This document shows, one piece after another, positions 8,299 to 41,915 of a stretch of 64,000 nt of DNA. Every line of letters begins with the position of its first letter. The stretch's first letter is position 1. The notes under the pieces were generated by a model, which made no database searches, was not told the DNA's origin, and worked only from the letters and a program-made list of their open reading frames with translations. Made by a program: the position numbers and the translations under genes. Source of the stretch: Patescibacteria group bacterium (GTDB lineage: Bacteria; Patescibacteriota; Patescibacteriia; Magasanikbacterales; JBBTQS01); contig JBBTQS010000001.1 of assembly GCA_038065555.1 (NCBI GenBank), positions 363,751-427,750 of the forward strand, written 5' to 3'.

Positions 8299-10086
8299 AT
8301 GCGCGTTCTTTCGTTGACACTCCCTGTGGCTCTGGCCGCATTTGCACTCACCACCGCAACAGCCTCTGCTGCACCGTCTGGAATCGAGCAGCGCATGGGC
8401 AACTACGATCACTCCTGCTCCAAGGCTTCAGCACTCGCAAAGCGTGTCGCAGGACATGTTGTCGTTGAGCCCGAAGCACAAGGTGCACTCTGGTATATTG
8501 ATCCAGTTCGCTGTGATCGATATCGTATCTACCGCCCAGAAGATGTAGCGAATCTCACTGCAGCAACAGGCGTCGGCGTGAGCAACGCGAATCTTGCGAG
8601 ACTCGCGCTCGGATTCGACACCAAGTCTGACGATCCGCTTCCTTTTGCCCATTTGCGCGCGGGGGACCCTGATGAAGACGGTGATGGCGTTCCTGACATG
8701 TTGGAGCAGGCACTGGGAACCAATCCCAAGAATACAGACACTGATGCAGACTCATACAACGACATGGTGGAGTTGCGTAATGCCTACGATCCACTACGGG
8801 CCAACGCGCTGCGACTCCCCGTCGACCTCGCATTCACGAAAAAACTCGCAGGCAGATTCATTCTCCAGACAGAAACTCGCGGCCACGTCTGGTACGTAAG
8901 TCCCCGTGACAACCGACGCTACTTCCTCGGCGGCAATGCAACGTCTATGCGTGTGCTCGCTGCGATTGCGCTGGGAGTGAAATCCAAAGATCTCGCAACC
9001 ATTCCAGAGAGCCGATCTGTCTACGGATTGCCGACCAAGTCCAATGGCAAAATCCCGTTTGTACTCACCACACCTCCTGGATTCAAAACAAGTTTGTTTG
9101 CGAGTGGTTTGCTTGCGCCGCGTGTCATGGTTTTTGCACCTGATGGCACCATGCTCGTGACTGATCTTGTGGACCGCACCGTTGTTGCACTGCCCGACGA
9201 CAACCGCGATGGTATCGCTGATCGTCGCGTGCTCGTGTTGAGCAACCTCCTCTTCCCTAATGGATTAGCGTTCCTCGATGGACGACTCTTTGTTGCACAA
9301 GAAGATGGGATTTATAGCTACGCATACGACAGCAAATCCTACCGCGCAAGTGGTGCCACAAAAATCATGGAGTTGCCAACAGGTGGTGAGCATCGCACTC
9401 GAAGTATATTTGTTGGTCCAGACAAGATGCTCTACGTCAGCATTGGATCTAGTTGCAATGTGTGTCGTGAGACTGATGGTAGATTTGCCACAATCTGGCG
9501 TATCTCCCCTGACGGGACGACCAAAACTCTCTTTGCCAAGGGTGTGCGCAATACAGTCTTCGGCGCATTTGATCCCGAAGGACGACTCTGGGGTAATGAT
9601 ATGGGGCGCGATGAAATGGGACACGATCTACCACCTGATGAAGTCAACATTATCCGAGAAGGCGGAACATTTGGCTGGCCCAACTGCTATGGCGACAATG
9701 TCCCTGATCCATCAATGGCAACTGCCACTGACTGTGCAGGACTTGATGCGCCTGCGCACATGTACGCGGCGCACGTAGCACCACTTGGCATGGTATTCGT
9801 AGATTCGAAGAAGTTCCCACCAGAATGGCAGGGCGATATTCTCAGCGCGCTGCATGGTTCGTGGGATCAAGAAAATCCTACGGGATATACCGTCGTTCGA
9901 CTGCATCGCCAAGGCACAACCATCATTGAGGAGGAAGTGGTGATCTCAGGATGGAAACGCCTCATCGAAGGCCAGAATCCTGCTCGCACCGCTCATGGTC
10001 GTCCAACAGGACTCGCATTTGGCCCTGACGGATCGCTCTTCATCAGCGACGACAAGTCAGGTATGATATATCGCGTAACCCGTTAG
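8299..10086 (+). CDS. Secreted PQQ-dependent sugar/sorbosone dehydrogenase-like beta-propeller protein with a duplicated N-terminal domain
   Basis: Signal peptide (MRVLSLTLPVALAAFALTTATASA). Two N-terminal repeats (WYIDPVRCDRYRIY and HVWYVSPRDNRRYF). An Asp-rich Ca-binding-like stretch (DPDEDGDGVPD...NTDTDADSYND). C-terminal GSDH-like motifs (GLAFLDGRLFV, TFGWPNCYG, GLAFGPDGSLFISD). Confidence 0.7.
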   Translation: MRVLSLTLPVALAAFALTTATASAAPSGIEQRMGNYDHSCSKASALAKRVAGHVVVEPEAQGALWYIDPVRCDRYRIYRPEDVANLTAATGVGVSNANLARLALGFDTKSDDPLPFAHLRAGDPDEDGDGVPDMLEQALGTNPKNTDTDADSYNDMVELRNAYDPLRANALRLPVDLAFTKKLAGRFILQTETRGHVWYVSPRDNRRYFLGGNATSMRVLAAIALGVKSKDLATIPESRSVYGLPTKSNGKIPFVLTTPPGFKTSLFASGLLAPRVMVFAPDGTMLVTDLVDRTVVALPDDNRDGIADRRVLVLSNLLFPNGLAFLDGRLFVAQEDGIYSYAYDSKSYRASGATKIMELPTGGEHRTRSIFVGPDKMLYVSIGSSCNVCRETDGRFATIWRISPDGTTKTLFAKGVRNTVFGAFDPEGRLWGNDMGRDEMGHDLPPDEVNIIREGGTFGWPNCYGDNVPDPSMATATDCAGLDAPAHMYAAHVAPLGMVFVDSKKFPPEWQGDILSALHGSWDQENPTGYTVVRLHRQGTTIIEEEVVISGWKRLIEGQNPARTAHGRPTGLAFGPDGSLFISDDKSGMIYRVTR

Positions 10087-35572: not shown

Positions 35573-35728
35573 CTACTTTGTTTCCTTGTGTGGGGTGTGC
35601 TTCACGCAAAACTTGCAGTGCTTATTTGTAAGCATGCGAGCCTTGATGATCTTCTTGTTCTTGTGGGTGTCATGCGTCACGCGGCTGCATGCGCTGCACT
35701 CAAGGTGAATCAAATTGTCTTGTGACAT
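35573..35728 (-). CDS. rpmG: 50S ribosomal protein L33
   Basis: 51-aa ORF below the ORF-track size cutoff. MSQDNLIHLECSACSRVTHDTHKNKKIIKARMLTNKHCKFCVKHTPHKETK carries the CxxC...CxxC zinc ribbon and the Lys-rich L33 pattern. It sits inside the tRNA cluster. Confidence 0.8.
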   Translation of the reverse strand: MSQDNLIHLECSACSRVTHDTHKNKKIIKARMLTNKHCKFCVKHTPHKETK

Positions 35729-35840: not shown

Positions 35841-35922
35841 TGGGCAGGGGGGGATTCGAACCCACGAAGGCGTAGCCAGCAGATTTACAGTCTGCCCCGG
35901 TTGACCACTTCGGTACCTGCCC
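35841..35922 (-). tRNA. tRNA-Tyr (anticodon GUA), long variable arm
   Basis: The reverse complement reads GGGCAGGTACCGAAGTGGTCAACCGGGGCAGACTGTAAATCTGC...GGGTTCGAATCCCCCCCTGCCCA. Anticodon loop CTGTAAA. Confidence 0.8.
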
Positions 35923-36003
35923 ATGGAAGTAACGGCGGTATTGTATGCAATTGTCGTATTTTTGTCAAAAGGACCAACTTCCTCAAATTTCCTTAAAAAA
36001 AGC

Positions 36004-36039
36004 TCACCCCACCACCGACGTCTGTCAGTGATGGGGTGT
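36004..36039 (-). terminator. Rho-independent terminator of the S1-S2 small-gene pair
   Basis: TCACCCCA-(20 nt)-TGGGGTGT followed by TTTTTTAAGG on the minus strand, 30 nt past the S2 stop. Confidence 0.6.
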
Positions 36040-36069: not shown

Positions 36070-36366
36070 TCAGTCGCCCGATCGCTTCATACGATCGAAC
36101 GAGTCTGGGTCGTTGTTCCAGGCCTCGAGTGTCTCCTCGAAGGCCCACTGCGTATTGGACCGAAGCGTCGCGAGGTCTCCCTCACAGACGAACCAGTACA
36201 ATCGCCTCTTCGTATGCGGCCCGCCGCCCTCATAGTCCGGCGTGGTGCTGCTCAACGCCAGTGTCATGATATCCCGCATCTTGCCGGGGAAATCTTTGCG
36301 TTGGAGGTGGAGCACCCGAGGTGGGCACTCCTCGGAGCTGCCAGCTGGTCTTGCTTCGAGATACAT
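36070..36366 (-). CDS. Small hypothetical protein S2 (~98 aa), paralog of S1
   Basis: Start trimmed to the ATG at 36366 (MYLEARPAGSSEECPP...). AGGAGG RBS 6 nt upstream. Shares MYL-RP-SS-CP...DFP...YW-VC...WN-P-SF with the adjacent gene. Confidence 0.65.
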   Translation of the reverse strand: MYLEARPAGSSEECPPRVLHLQRKDFPGKMRDIMTLALSSTTPDYEGGGPHTKRRLYWFVCEGDLATLRSNTQWAFEETLEAWNNDPDSFDRMKRSGD

Positions 36367-36368
36367 GG

Positions 36369-36662
36369 TCAGCCTCCTGTCGCCTTCTTGAACGACTCGG
36401 GCTTCGCGTTCCAGCGCTTGAGCTGGGAACGAAGCGCTCGCTCCGTGCAGTCCCAGACGCGTCGCGGCTCGTAGTCGCACACGTACCAGTACATCTGGTC
36501 GCTGGGGCTGGCATCTGGATCCGAGTCGGGACTCGAGGAACTCCCCATGACCTCCTGGATCAGCCCCTCGAGATCGTCATTCGGGAAATCCGACGATTCG
36601 AGAACGATGACCATCGCAGGGCAGTCCGCGGAGCTGTTGGGCGGTCGATTATCGAGATACAT
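36369..36662 (-). CDS. Small hypothetical protein S1 (~97 aa), paralog of S2
   Basis: Start trimmed to the ATG at 36662 (MYLDNRPPNSSADCPAMV...). GAGGAG RBS 6 nt upstream. Acidic, Ser-rich linker. Confidence 0.65.
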   Translation of the reverse strand: MYLDNRPPNSSADCPAMVIVLESSDFPNDDLEGLIQEVMGSSSSPDSDPDASPSDQMYWYVCDYEPRRVWDCTERALRSQLKRWNAKPESFKKATGG

Positions 36663-36794
36663 GAGATGCTCCTCATTTGAACAGAACGAATTCCACATCA
36701 CTCGGGACCCCGAGCTGCGGAAAACAAATATGTATACCACATTTTTAGGCTTTTGTCAAGATGTGCATTGAAAAACAGAAAAATTACAAAAGAA

Positions 36795-36822
36795 AACACC
36801 CCACTCTCTCGAATGGGGTGTT
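36795..36822 (-). terminator. Terminator hairpin ACACCCCA...TGGGGTGT downstream of P2
   Basis: 8-bp stem, 10-nt loop, followed on the minus strand by TTTTCTTTTGTAATTTTTCTGTTTTTC. Confidence 0.6.
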
Positions 36823-36903
36823 CTGTTAGTCGTGCGACGGCAATCCGCCACATGGACGCTGGAGCGTCCGCCATCGAAGTCCGCTCATTGGATACTCCTC
36901 CTG

Positions 36904-37656
36904 TTAGACGGTGAAGGGATGAATGATGGGAAGCTCTTGCGTTCGCAGCGGCTGGTACATCCGATCCTTGCGCGACGCAGGGCTCTCGGATTGCACGTAG
37001 ATTGCGTTCGGGTACACTCGTTCGAGCGTTGCGCCCTCGAACGCATATGCTGCGACCTGTCGTTGCGCCGCCTCACGCGTTCCGCCAGGGAACAGGATGT
37101 CAGGGAACGCTCGCAGGTGTTGATCTTCTTGATGCACGTGCAGTGCTTGTGCTGACTCACTCGCCCACCGCACTGCGTGCGCGTGAGTCACGTGAAGTGC
37201 CGCACGAGATTCGATCGAACTCCACGTCGCAACATCCCAGTTCTCAGGAATCTGTTTGCGTCCCTCCTCGATCATCAGCTCACAGGCTGTTGTACTCTCA
37301 CTCTGATCACAGCTCCAGCCCCACGTGCGAACCGGCTCACAATCAGGGAGCACCACCAGCATCTGTGCATCGACATGATCACGAATGCGCTGAAGCAACG
37401 ATTGCATCTGTCCGTACTTGCGACTGCGCAGGAAATACGTTTCGAACAGATCGAGTCGCAGTTCCTCTTTGTCCTTGTACGTTCCCAGGCAGGAGAATGC
37501 GATGAACTGCAGCGGTTGGTTCGCATGCAATGCTGCGAGCACTCGCGCAGGCGCGTAGAATGATTCTTGCTCACAGGCCTCGAACAGTTCGAGCACTCGT
37601 TGTGCACTCGTACTGAGCGCACGCCTGAGCTGTCGTTCTTCCTTTGTTGATGCCAC
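36904..37656 (-). CDS. Hypothetical protein P2 (250 aa), paralog of P1
   Basis: Shares PLQFIAFSC, LLQRIRDHVDAQMLVVLPDCEP and a C-terminal RMYQPL block with the upstream gene. No known motif recognised. Confidence 0.6.
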   Translation of the reverse strand: MASTKEERQLRRALSTSAQRVLELFEACEQESFYAPARVLAALHANQPLQFIAFSCLGTYKDKEELRLDLFETYFLRSRKYGQMQSLLQRIRDHVDAQMLVVLPDCEPVRTWGWSCDQSESTTACELMIEEGRKQIPENWDVATWSSIESRAALHVTHAHAVRWASESAQALHVHQEDQHLRAFPDILFPGGTREAAQRQVAAYAFEGATLERVYPNAIYVQSESPASRKDRMYQPLRTQELPIIHPFTV

Positions 37657-37734
37657 GTGCCACCTCCTCGGTGCGAGATCAGCTGTGAAGCGTCCTGACC
37701 TTCAGGACGCTCGTGCAGCTGACCGCTGCACACG

Positions 37735-38592
37735 TCATTGATATCCTCCGTTATCAACGCCGTAGAAATACACAATCGGCAACTGCGCATCATACTGCTG
37801 TGCAATCAGCGGTTGATACATCGTTGATCGCAGGACTGACGGATTCTCATTCTGGATGAGAATCATTGGCATGAGCGACTTGTACATCCACCGCGCCTGC
37901 AACGCATACTCTACGAATTTGCGACGAATCCAATCGCGCAAGACTGTCTCGTCAGGCGCCGTGAGTCCATCGAAATATTTGCCCACAGTGAACTGTGTTC
38001 GCAGTGCACGCAACTCCCATTCGCGATCAGTCTCACTCCCCACTCCCCGCGCCAACTCCTGATCGAACTCTTGCTCGAACGTCTGTGCACGCAACTGATT
38101 CTGTTCCTGCTCCCAGACATACCAACTCACCACACGCGCACGGAGCGCTGGATATGTTGCTGCAACCCATGCTTCCAACGCATCGCGATACTGTGCCCAT
38201 CGCGCTGCGAACTGCTCGACTACCGACGCGCGATCAGCCTGGGACAACTCCTGGAACTGCTGCCGATAGATGTAGTACGGATCTGTATTACCAATCATGA
38301 TCACGACTTCGACTGGATACACCTCGCGTAGCGCCTGCACAATCCTCGTGAGCCGCGGCAAATCTGCTTCCAGATTGTTGCCCGCAGTATCAGTGCGCAC
38401 GTACATCCACGGCGTGTCGCTGTACATCTCTCGCGCAGTGATCGTTGAACACGTGAACGTCACGAACCGCAGTGGTACACCCGCTTCCACAGCACGCTCT
38501 ACTGCCTGTTGAACCGCGGCGCGATACGTATCCTCTGCGGCGTCATACACCGCAAGTTTTTCCATGATGTCTCGAATGATTTGTTTTTGCAT
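37735..38592 (-). CDS. Hypothetical protein P1 (285 aa), paralog of P2
   Basis: Start trimmed to the ATG at 38592 (MQKQIIRDIMEKL...). The longer ORF-track start would read through the upstream terminator tail. Carries PLRFVTFTC, VVIMIGNTDPYYIY and TMYQPL. Confidence 0.6.
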   Translation of the reverse strand: MQKQIIRDIMEKLAVYDAAEDTYRAAVQQAVERAVEAGVPLRFVTFTCSTITAREMYSDTPWMYVRTDTAGNNLEADLPRLTRIVQALREVYPVEVVIMIGNTDPYYIYRQQFQELSQADRASVVEQFAARWAQYRDALEAWVAATYPALRARVVSWYVWEQEQNQLRAQTFEQEFDQELARGVGSETDREWELRALRTQFTVGKYFDGLTAPDETVLRDWIRRKFVEYALQARWMYKSLMPMILIQNENPSVLRSTMYQPLIAQQYDAQLPIVYFYGVDNGGYQ

Positions 38593-38614
38593 ACTGTAAT
38601 GAAGAGAAAAAAGA

Positions 38615-38642
38615 AACACCCCTCTCTTTCGAGAGGGGTGTT
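38615..38642 (-). terminator. Perfect 12-bp hairpin AACACCCCTCTC-TTTC-GAGAGGGGTGTT upstream of P1
   Basis: Followed on the minus strand by TTTCTTTTTTCTCTTC. Near-identical in style to the hairpins at 36795-36822 and 36004-36039. It could terminate an unannotated transcript from the 38643-38787 gap. Confidence 0.5.
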
Positions 38643-38835: not shown

Positions 38836-41136
38836 TCACGCCTTCTGCGCTGGGGCAGACTGAGCGTGTGCCGTGAGTCGCGCAGCGACCTCCTCTTGGA
38901 GGAGGCGTCGCTGCGTCTCATCAGGTGCCACCGTAGCGATCTGATCGAGTGCTGCCTTGAAGATTCTCGCAACTTCACGCTGACGATGCAGACACTGTTC
39001 GAGCTCCTGAATGCGTTGCGCTCGTATCTGCTGTTCCTCGATTCGATACCGAAGCTCCGTTTCCTCCTTCTCGTAATCTGCCCGAACTTGCACGAGCTCT
39101 GCTTGGATCGACTCCTCCGAAATAACATAGTACGAGGGCGTCACCGGGGGCTCCTCGTCTTGCACGTCATCTTCCGGAACTCGTTCGCGCCTGACGCATC
39201 TGAATAGGCTCGGCGCTTCGCTGTCGATACCCTCTCGCTCTCCTGGAATGTAGTATCGATCGAGATTCAGCAACCCCTCCTCGTCCACCAGCTTGCGCAG
39301 GAAGTATTCCACGAAGTCCTCCGAACCATCCCAGCCGAGAACAGCACGAACTTCATCGATGTGCCCAGTGCTCAATGCGAAGTAGTCTCTGTCCTTTGCA
39401 TTCTCTGTCGCACGTACGAGCACCTCCTCGAGTTGATCGAGAGCCACACCCTCCTTACGTAGACGACCGATGATCACAGCAGCATGACTCGCGCCAGCGT
39501 TCTGATCTGTTTCCATTGCGAGGAACGCGTACCATCGGGACGTATCATTGAACTTCAGTCGACGCTGATTACTCTCTTCAGAGTACCTCGTCGACGTCAC
39601 ATCTGCGAGACCGTCTTTGATGAGAAGCGACGCGAATTCTGCTGCTGTGACATGGAGCATGAGCCCCGCATTGAACCACGCCGCATCTTCGATCTCCTGG
39701 ACCTTGAAACCGCTGCGCCCATAGAACTCCTTGACGACATCGGTGTAGGCCGCCCGACACGCATCGATCTGCGCCTGCGTGAGATTGTCTGCTTTGGATG
39801 TTTGAGAACCAGTTGCCATGCTGACCTCCGTTGTGCCGCCCGTCGATGCGCAGCGGCAATGCAGCGTCCTGATTTCGCCATCGCTTGGCGATCGCTCAGG
39901 ACGAACTTCGAGCAGCGACCCAGCAGGTGTCACTGCGAACTGTTCGAGGAACCGTTCCACGAACAGTTGATGCTGACGGTGTTGAGACCAGTTGAGCGCA
40001 GTGCGCAGCACACCTGCTACACTCGCCGTGACCTCGAACCACCCAGACTCATCAGTGGGAATGGTGCGCAATGCAGTTGTGAGGGCTTCACGGAGTGTGA
40101 GATCCTCCGAGACTTCCTCGACAGCACTGATACACCTCTCTTCGCCCCAGATTTTGCCCAGTCGCATTGCGATACGGTCTGCAGTGCGGTCATGAGCAAC
40201 CAACCGGAGCTCGCGCTTGTCGCTCTTCTTGTCAACAGTCGCGTGCGTGAGATCCTCGAGATGCGCATCGCGCACCAACGCATCAATCACATCCGCTGCA
40301 GTATTGGGTTTGCCGTGCCCAGTATTAGCTGCGAACCACGGCACACGCTTCACCCGTTCGAGCGTGAACGAACTTGCGCCGTAGAAAGCACTCACGAGCG
40401 CCTCGTGTGCGGCTTGCGCGGTTCCTGGTGACAACCCCTGGGAGACAGTCGGGGCACGCACCACAGATACTTCGCTCTTCCGAAATCGTCCACCGCATTC
40501 CTTGGGAAGGCGATCGAGATCGAACGCGAACTCACCTGGGATCGTGCTTCCCTTCGCTCGTGGTGGTTTGTCGATACGCAGTGCGCTATGCTTGCGCGCG
40601 AGTGCAATCGCAGCGAGCGCAAGACCCTTGTCCGAGACAACTTCAATCGCGCGAGCAAGAGTGAACTCTTTCTCTGACACTGCACCTACCAGCATCTTCA
40701 GGTTGACCACAGTGATATCCGCGTCAGCAGATTCCGTGACTGTTCTTTTATGCGCCTGAAGAGGCATCGGTACAGATTCGGTGCTGCGCCCGTGCAGCTT
40801 GTTCGCGAACCTGTATGACACGTGCTCGTCACCTGCAGAGAGTCCTCCACGAACCAGATGCAGTAATCCAGCTTCGTGGTAGTGAGCCAGTCGCTGACCC
40901 CAACTCTTTGCCGTGCCGTCTGAAAGGATTGGCGCAATTGATGCACCTGAAAAGACCAATCCACTGGACAGTTCTCGGGAGAGCCGCAGGAAATGCGGTT
41001 CATTGCTGAGATCTTCATTCACTGTAGCCTCCAGAAACGGTGATTGTTGTGGTTGCGAGTACCCACTCGCTTGCGCGATCCTACCAATCTTTGCATGACG
41101 GGTCAATGTGTCAGCGTTGATCGTCGAACCCACCAT
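38836..41136 (-). CDS. Large hypothetical protein (766 aa) with three internal repeats and a C-terminal coiled-coil; possibly phage antirepressor/BRO-N-like
   Basis: Repeated blocks: EKEFTLARAIEVVSDKGLALAAIALA, then AFYGASSFTLERVKRVPWFAANTG, then EFYGRSGFKVQEIEDAAWFNAGLM. The C-terminal approximately 100 aa are heptad-rich (ELVQVRADYEKEETELRYRIEEQQIRAQRIQELEQCLHRQ). GC looks higher than the core genes. Confidence 0.6.
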   Translation of the reverse strand: MVGSTINADTLTRHAKIGRIAQASGYSQPQQSPFLEATVNEDLSNEPHFLRLSRELSSGLVFSGASIAPILSDGTAKSWGQRLAHYHEAGLLHLVRGGLSAGDEHVSYRFANKLHGRSTESVPMPLQAHKRTVTESADADITVVNLKMLVGAVSEKEFTLARAIEVVSDKGLALAAIALARKHSALRIDKPPRAKGSTIPGEFAFDLDRLPKECGGRFRKSEVSVVRAPTVSQGLSPGTAQAAHEALVSAFYGASSFTLERVKRVPWFAANTGHGKPNTAADVIDALVRDAHLEDLTHATVDKKSDKRELRLVAHDRTADRIAMRLGKIWGEERCISAVEEVSEDLTLREALTTALRTIPTDESGWFEVTASVAGVLRTALNWSQHRQHQLFVERFLEQFAVTPAGSLLEVRPERSPSDGEIRTLHCRCASTGGTTEVSMATGSQTSKADNLTQAQIDACRAAYTDVVKEFYGRSGFKVQEIEDAAWFNAGLMLHVTAAEFASLLIKDGLADVTSTRYSEESNQRRLKFNDTSRWYAFLAMETDQNAGASHAAVIIGRLRKEGVALDQLEEVLVRATENAKDRDYFALSTGHIDEVRAVLGWDGSEDFVEYFLRKLVDEEGLLNLDRYYIPGEREGIDSEAPSLFRCVRRERVPEDDVQDEEPPVTPSYYVISEESIQAELVQVRADYEKEETELRYRIEEQQIRAQRIQELEQCLHRQREVARIFKAALDQIATVAPDETQRRLLQEEVAARLTAHAQSAPAQKA

Positions 41137-41839: not shown

Positions 41840-41915
41840 TGGAGCCGACGACCAGGATTGAACTGGTGACCTCATCCTTACCATGGATGCGCTCTACCAA
41901 CTGAGCTACGTCGGC
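41840..41915 (-). tRNA. tRNA-Thr (anticodon GGU), CCA encoded
   Basis: The reverse complement reads GCCGACGTAGCTCAGTTGGTAGAGCGCATCCATGGTAAGGATGAGGTCACCAGTTCAATCCTGGTCGTCGGCTCCA. Anticodon loop ATGGTAA. Confidence 0.85.

Follow-up and report, generated by a model that had tools for sequence, protein, structure and literature searches.

A very rare family of small acidic proteins with a new predicted fold, encoded by old tandem paralogues beside a tRNA gene cluster of a Patescibacteria genome

Type II toxin-antitoxin and immunity pairs are encoded by small, adjacent, co-transcribed genes that have overlapping translation signals and a promoter and terminator of their own, while Ocr, ArdA, Ugi, and similar DNA-mimic or anti-restriction proteins are short (<100-120 amino acids, aa), net negative, orphan-like, and fast-evolving. 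Orphan small proteins are also abundant in Patescibacteria. Here, two such genes, S1 and S2, were analyzed, which lie at positions 36,070 to 36,662 of a 64,000-nucleotide (nt) stretch of DNA (hereafter, the window; coordinates refer to it unless another locus is named) from a Patescibacteria group bacterium of the Magasanikbacterales (assembly GCA_038065555.1, contig JBBTQS010000001.1, positions 363,751 to 427,750 of the forward strand). The explanation that we favor, at slightly better than even confidence, is that S1 and S2, duplicated in tandem long ago, belong to a very rare family of soluble, acidic proteins that act as small regulatory or adaptor binding proteins. The features of the S1-S2 unit and its upstream border are as follows:

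36662-36369, minus strand: S1, 97 aa, isoelectric point (pI) 4.4; ATG at 36662, TGA stop at 36371-36369
36366-36070, minus strand: S2, 98 aa, pI 5.4; ATG at 36366, TGA stop at 36072-36070
36652-36663, minus strand: 12-nt direct repeat CATGTATCTCGA, copy 1, at the start of S1
36356-36367, minus strand: 12-nt direct repeat CATGTATCTCGA, copy 2, at the start of S2
36674-36669, minus strand: Shine-Dalgarno (SD) sequence of S1, GAGGAG, 6 nt before the ATG
36378-36373, minus strand: SD sequence of S2, AGGAGG, 6 nt before the ATG, within the final codons of S1
36731-36759, minus strand: putative promoter of S1-S2; -35 hexamer TTGACA (36759-36754), 17-nt spacer, -10 hexamer TATACA (36736-36731)
36682-36728, minus strand: conserved 47-nt 5' leader of S1, with a hairpin (CUCGG-GGUC-CCGAG) at 36714-36701
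35995-36038, minus strand: intrinsic terminator of S1-S2; stem 36038-36005 of 15 pairs (9 G-C), followed by a T-run
36793-36824, minus strand: intrinsic terminator of the upstream unit of gene P1; 14-pair stem with a T-rich tail

The product of S1 is identical in sequence to GenBank entry MEK7647792.1 (hypothetical protein AAB384_02010). BLASTP alignment of S1 with S2, whose genes are separated by a gap of 2 nt, revealed 33% identity and 56% positives over 97 residues (E = 5e-17), and the motifs MYL[DE]xRPxxSSxxCP, DFP, YW[YF]VC, and WNxxP[ED]SF are all present in the alignment. Thus, the tandem pair of paralogous ~97-aa proteins with this motif skeleton, which the original prediction had described from the letters alone, was confirmed with exact gene coordinates. 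Judging from the alignments, the two proteins are asymmetrically diverged, old tandem duplicates. The CATGTATCTCGA repeats open one base before the start codon of each gene. In a profile search that returned S1 at E = 3.8e-37 and S2 at E = 2.5e-32, both being profile members by construction, no third S paralogue came up, either in the window or among the loci that were fetched. An N-terminally extended form of S1, starting from an upstream GTG, was considered and rejected, as the frame is not kept at the related locus L003 and most family members begin with MYxD. The tandem arrangement is unchanged in the three independent assemblies shown (L008-L010), which are among 10 contigs that carry S1; the two European Nucleotide Archive (ENA) records among these assemblies are named for the groundwater well H41, Hainich.

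When 5.8 billion protein clusters were searched with a word index, only three proteins were retrieved, namely S1, the near-identical S2 variant P0002, and P0003, an S1 orthologue with 58% identity. An exhaustive HMMER search of 1.84 billion (1.84e9) representatives with a four-sequence family profile gave 14 matches at E <= 1e-3, consisting of the two queries, seven small proteins, and five giant adhesin-like repeat proteins. The small homologues (77-99 aa; E-values from 1.3e-9 to 6.3e-4) have in common the full-length skeleton MYxDxxPPxxPxxCPxxVLVLExxDFP ... YWxV ... TExALRxxLxxWN; for most members, the MYxD N-terminus of this skeleton coincides exactly with the annotated start. S1 fits this skeleton along its whole length. 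S2, which has diverged furthest within the family, retains MY, RP, CP, DFP, YWxV, T..A, and WN, and departs from the skeleton where D4, PP, and TE are replaced by E, PA, and TQ, respectively. In the giant repeat proteins (P0005, P0009, P0010, P0011, and P0014; HMMER E-values, summed, of 4e-9 to 3e-4), the shared region is a stretch rich in Ser, Thr, and Asp with [SY]WxV after it, as read in P0005 and P0010. When P0010, the only one of them compared, was aligned by hhalign, the probability was 0.7%, and therefore all five were treated as spurious compositional matches multiplied by the repeats and left out of the family.

The pI of nine out of ten members is 4.1-5.4, and that of the remaining one is 7.9. 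A metagenome scan with a degenerate pattern matched a single locus, L007, which belongs to the same organism as L003. No S-family match was found in a scan of IMG/VR, and tblastn gave one noise match against GenBank phages and none against GenBank plasmids. On the basis of these searches, the family appears to be very rare and has so far been seen only in a few genomes, presumably all of Patescibacteria; where the habitat is recorded, which is the case for the window organism, it is groundwater. The homologues of L004, L005, and L006 are solo, monocistronic genes, each of which is preceded by a perfect TTGACA -35 box of its own, and their neighborhoods are unrelated (an LTD/PKD protein with YchF; an unknown protein with an H+-pyrophosphatase; ScpA/ScpB), so that no conserved partner gene stands beside the S homologues. 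The YchF of L004 is 70-74% identical to that of its nearest named relatives, Candidatus Magasanikbacteria, and no S gene was present in the YchF neighborhoods of relatives at 76-80% identity, even in a synteny-guided look for diverged copies. In a Magasanikbacteria-like relative (L011/L012, 8152-9080), a bAvd accessory gene adjoins a reverse transcriptase; the two look like a diversity-generating retroelement, which is unrelated to the S family.

None of the ten members matched a family in Pfam-A, NCBIfam, PHROGs, or PADLOC; the best E-values, each seen in one member, were 0.05 for Pfam, 0.11 for NCBIfam, and 0.23 for PHROGs, and PADLOC gave none. Similarly, the family profile had no match among the sequences of the Protein Data Bank (PDB), where the best E-value was 0.89. 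AlphaFold2 reached a predicted local distance difference test (pLDDT) score of 49.6 with four sequences. With ten sequences, S1 was predicted with a pLDDT of 90.4 and a predicted template modeling (pTM) score of 0.77, the five models ranging from 84.8 to 90.4. The predicted topology begins with strand b1 (residues 2-5), a Pro-rich loop, strand b2 (17-21), the DFP loop, helix a1 (31-41), and strand b3 (43-45), and proceeds through a variable acidic loop to the b4-b5 hairpin (56-72), helix a2 (74-86), and a short C-terminal helix. The loop of variable length corresponds to alignment columns 40-57 and is Asp/Ser/Pro-rich. Foldseek detected no neighbor of the model in the PDB (best E-value, 2.1) or among the viral structures of BFVD (best E-value, 1.1). 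Provisionally, the S family can thus be described as a compact alpha/beta domain whose predicted fold is new relative to the PDB and BFVD. The new small-protein family suggested at the outset is borne out by real genes, distant homologues, and the lack of a match to a known family or solved fold, and the structure prediction that had been proposed as a check gave a confident model with no solved neighbor. What is new about S is the protein family and the predicted fold, not a demonstrated kind of biological system.

The history of the pair can be read from related loci. Loci L003 and L007 represent one organism, and L001 a close relative of L003. The L003 locus is syntenic with the window, comprising tRNA-Thr(GGT), a 749-aa protein homologous to a 766-aa product of the window, the S locus, tRNA-Tyr/Thr, rpmG, tRNA-Trp, a phosphotransferase, and a methyltransferase. 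The contig of L003 (CAZVGV010000014.1) is titled 'uncultured Gammaproteobacteria bacterium' despite being syntenic gene for gene with the Patescibacteria window, which probably reflects a mislabelled or contaminated bin. In L001, L003, and L007, S1 is intact, and S2 of L003 and L007 is reduced to a 36-codon remnant (L003, 10306-10416) with a GTG start and an internal deletion, which keeps the C-terminal ESWNEDPDSFNLM block (WNEDPDSF) alone. The remnant in L001 (~885-996) is additionally frameshifted by one G fewer in a G-run. In this lineage, S2 is a decaying pseudogene. The opposite loss was found in L002, a close strain (synonymous divergence, dS, ~0.07-0.10), where the S1 leader joins the S2 coding sequence directly, S1 having been excised exactly between the CATGTATCTCGA 12-nt repeats, and the near-identical S2 orthologue P0002 is retained. 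Taken together, the decay of S2 in one lineage, the deletion of S1 in another, and the solo homologues elsewhere indicate that, on sequence comparison, the duplication predates the split of the window and L003 lineages, that either copy can be lost alone, and that an S-family protein is a single-gene function. In the phylogeny built for dating the duplication, the only resolved grouping was that of S1 with P0003, at 94% bootstrap support.

The signals around the genes were examined as well. Both genes have a consensus SD sequence, as originally predicted, and since that of S2 lies inside the end of S1 and the gap is only 2 nt, translation of S2 is probably coupled to that of S1. The promoter was read from the sequence and the alignment; it is absent from the promoter-scan list because its -10 hexamer ends in A. 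A perfect TTGACA with a 17-nt spacer is also found upstream of the homologues in L003, L004, L005, and L006. The terminator that had been ascribed to the pair was found by the terminator scan and is kept in L001, L002, and L003. The P1 terminator, which can be aligned with L003 (identity across the region, ~57-62%), insulates S1-S2 from P1 and from its companion gene P2. From its sequence signals, which are strong ones for expression, S1-S2 can be described as a self-contained bicistronic unit with a promoter, a ~60-nt leader that includes the conserved 47-nt stretch, the SD sequences of S1 and S2, and a terminator. A 58-aa gene is called by some pipelines at 36698-36874 on the minus strand (L009, 2657-2833; L010, 2789-2965); this call, which overlaps the P1 terminator and the S1 promoter, is probably spurious. 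The 47-nt stretch is identical to that of L001/L003 at 46 positions (L003, ~9925-9975), while the coding sequences are 55-65% identical with saturated synonymous sites, and its sole substitution falls in the hairpin loop. The folding z-score of the leader is -2.4, and a permissive Rfam scan gave sub-threshold, terminator-like matches only. It contains no conserved reading frame, and its conservation does not extend to the distant homologues. The leader may be a regulatory or mRNA-stabilising element.

Several of the ratios of non-synonymous to synonymous substitution rates (dN/dS) given here rest on few substitutions. The ratio was 0.27-0.28 for S1 versus its orthologues in L001 and L003 (each 58% identical), with synonymous sites saturated, and 0.37 for S2 versus the L002 copy, compared with 0.054 for P1 in the same window/L002 strain pair. 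Between the S1 orthologues of the near-identical strains L001 (582-884) and L003 (10001-10303), 10 non-synonymous and 2 synonymous differences gave a dN/dS of 1.55; among them are E74V and R75G, located in the TE motif that the family conserves, and these two look more like decay than adaptation because they hit conserved positions. As far as the substitution patterns indicate, S1 and S2 evolve fast and under selection as coding genes.

Regarding function, the S protein is soluble, ~80-100 aa long, and mostly acidic, with no signal peptide or membrane segment. Its likeliest role would be that of a small regulator or adaptor that binds some other macromolecule in the cytoplasm, and the small regulatory pair named in the original prediction may thus apply. 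This role is proposed tentatively and, taken by itself, is rather doubtful, the description of structure and evolution being much firmer. A candidate interface would be formed by the conserved polar residues D4, E22, D25, T73-E74, R78, and N85, the variable acidic loop could tune binding specificity, and S1 and S2 may be partly redundant or differ in specificity. The gene is presumably non-essential and accessory, since it occurs patchily, evolves fast, and has decayed in one lineage. An enzyme, or one half of a two-component module, is an unlikely description of the S protein.

Several points weigh against this account of the family. The fold is a prediction from ten sequences only, which was compared with the PDB and BFVD. 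The functional part is inferred from negative evidence and general properties, and the conserved acidic residues could equally well belong to a metal or catalytic site. The dN/dS of 1.55 between L001 and L003 may reflect decay in that lineage or positive selection, the latter favoring an arms-race function, and the deletion of S1 in L002 is seen on a single short Logan contig.

In the window, the pair is directly followed by tRNA-Tyr, tRNA-Thr, rpmG, and tRNA-Trp, in agreement with the predicted location beside a tRNA cluster. These genes, with a separate consensus promoter (TTGACA-17-TACAAT) located downstream of S1-S2, constitute an ordinary cluster of tRNA and ribosomal-protein genes. The rpmG gene (ribosomal protein L33, 51 aa) is found at 35573-35728 on the minus strand, between tRNA-Thr(TGT) and tRNA-Trp (NCBIfam TIGR01023; E = 1.2e-11), and L003 has ~90 nt extra between tRNA-Tyr and tRNA-Thr. 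The whole islet, from tRNA-Thr(GGT) at 41840 to tRNA-Tyr at 35922 (~6 kb), contains only orphan genes, and its content varies between lineages. Besides the pair, it harbors the following genes:

36904-38619, minus strand: P1 (250 aa) and P2 (294 aa), no family match
38836-41136, minus strand: 766-aa protein with a coiled-coil C-terminus; its 749-aa homologue lies upstream of the S locus in L003

P1 and P2 resemble each other only weakly (E = 3e-6, 61 residues at the C-terminus), and the 766-aa protein matched nothing in Pfam, NCBIfam, PHROGs, or PADLOC. At the syntenic locus of L003, L007, and L001, P1 and P2 are absent (L003, 9785-10000), and S1 directly follows the 749-aa homologue. No mobile-element, phage, or defence genes were found near S1-S2, the family and its neighbors having no PADLOC or PHROG match.

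Among the other explanations, the one that most deserves weighing is a conflict or arms-race factor, i.e., a DNA mimic, an anti-restriction or anti-defence protein, or an episymbiont protein for interaction with the host, in which the loop and the copy number shift. The acidic pI, the Asp/Ser/Pro-rich loop of varying length, a dN/dS 6-7 times that of P1 (and above 1 between L001 and L003, at small counts), the differing S copy number of close strains, the rare and patchy distribution, and the location in an orphan islet between tRNA genes all fit such a factor. However, the surroundings and the profile searches offer no mobile, phage, or defence context, the family is missing from IMG/VR and from GenBank phages and plasmids, one member is not acidic, secretion would be unexplained given the lack of a signal peptide, and the substitution rates are explained equally well by relaxed constraint. 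This explanation is therefore regarded as unlikely, and a shade less likely still is its more specific form, in which the new fold is that of a fast-evolving, copy-variable conflict or interaction factor of these ultra-small episymbionts, for instance a mimic of DNA or protein by which a host or phage protein is neutralised, with S1 and S2 as two specificities under a strongly conserved, regulated leader. For a small enzyme, or a metal- or redox-binding protein, the acidic cluster or the Cys-Pro motif would have to provide the site, but Cys14 is replaced in P0008 and P0012, Cys62 is clade-specific, and the fast evolution and dispensability would be unusual for an enzyme; such a function is improbable.

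The remaining explanations concern the pair as a unit. Adjacency on the same strand in the window and the fact that both are duplicated orphan families might suggest that S1/S2 belong to a co-duplicated functional module with P1/P2, the association raised in the original prediction. Yet this link fails on the terminator and the separate promoter that stand between the two units and on the absence of P1/P2 from the syntenic locus of the nearest other lineage, that of L003. Nor did the neighborhoods examined, including that of L005, contain a P-like gene beside any other homologue, their genes being unrelated to P1/P2, and the module is thus very improbable. Still less can be said for the idea, also suggested at the outset, that S1 and S2 are partners in a toxin-antitoxin or immunity module. 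Two small neighboring genes that are co-transcribed, seem to be coupled in translation, and have a promoter and a terminator to themselves would suit it, but the two proteins are paralogous and share the same predicted fold, all homologues outside the clade are solo, each gene has been lost with the other retained, and no toxin, antitoxin, or defence profile matched. Paralogy, solo homologues, and independent loss leave the antitoxin-like reading unsupported. Finally, that S1 and S2 are spurious open reading frames from which no protein is made is barely credible, even though they contain no known domain and S2 had no protein accession in the look-up. As had been anticipated, the significant paralogy and the consensus SD sites speak for real genes, and so do the distant homologues, dN/dS values below 1 in the window comparisons, a high-confidence predicted fold, and the exact agreement, for most members, between MYxD and the annotated start. 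Both S1 and S2 are thus real genes that encode proteins.

If the prediction holds, an alpha/beta domain of ~90 residues with no solved relative, represented by about ten sequence clusters among 1.84 billion, would be added, as both fold and family, to the large part of the Patescibacteria protein repertoire that has yet to be explored. It also lends itself to study, as the protein is tiny and soluble and as variants with one copy, two copies, or a decayed copy exist in nature; the role of lineage-specific small proteins in organisms with minimal genomes could be addressed with it. In practice, the finding carries limited weight, as orphan families are common and no long-standing question can be tested from the S locus alone; for the same reason, that orphan families are common in Patescibacteria, the finding would surprise a specialist little.

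With regard to described systems, the closest analogies concern function or anatomy only, and a beta-alpha-beta likeness of the predicted fold to the Rossmann-like pre-ATP-grasp N-domain (RimK, LysX, and ArgX) is at noise level. S1/S2 have the gene layout of type II toxin-antitoxin and immunity pairs, with small adjacent co-transcribed genes, overlapping translation signals, and their own promoter and terminator. Unlike the two non-homologous partners of such pairs, S1 and S2 are paralogues (E = 5e-17), their pairing is not conserved (solo genes in L004-L006, a single copy in L002, and one functional copy in L003/L007/L001), and the family matches no toxin or antitoxin family in sequence or fold. 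DNA mimics such as Ocr, ArdA, and Ugi differ from the S family in that the latter has no PDB or BFVD similarity, is not located on a phage, plasmid, or mobile element, and includes one member with a pI of 7.9. What the S proteins have in common with these mimics are general properties, since they too are small, mostly acidic, orphan-like, and fast-evolving.
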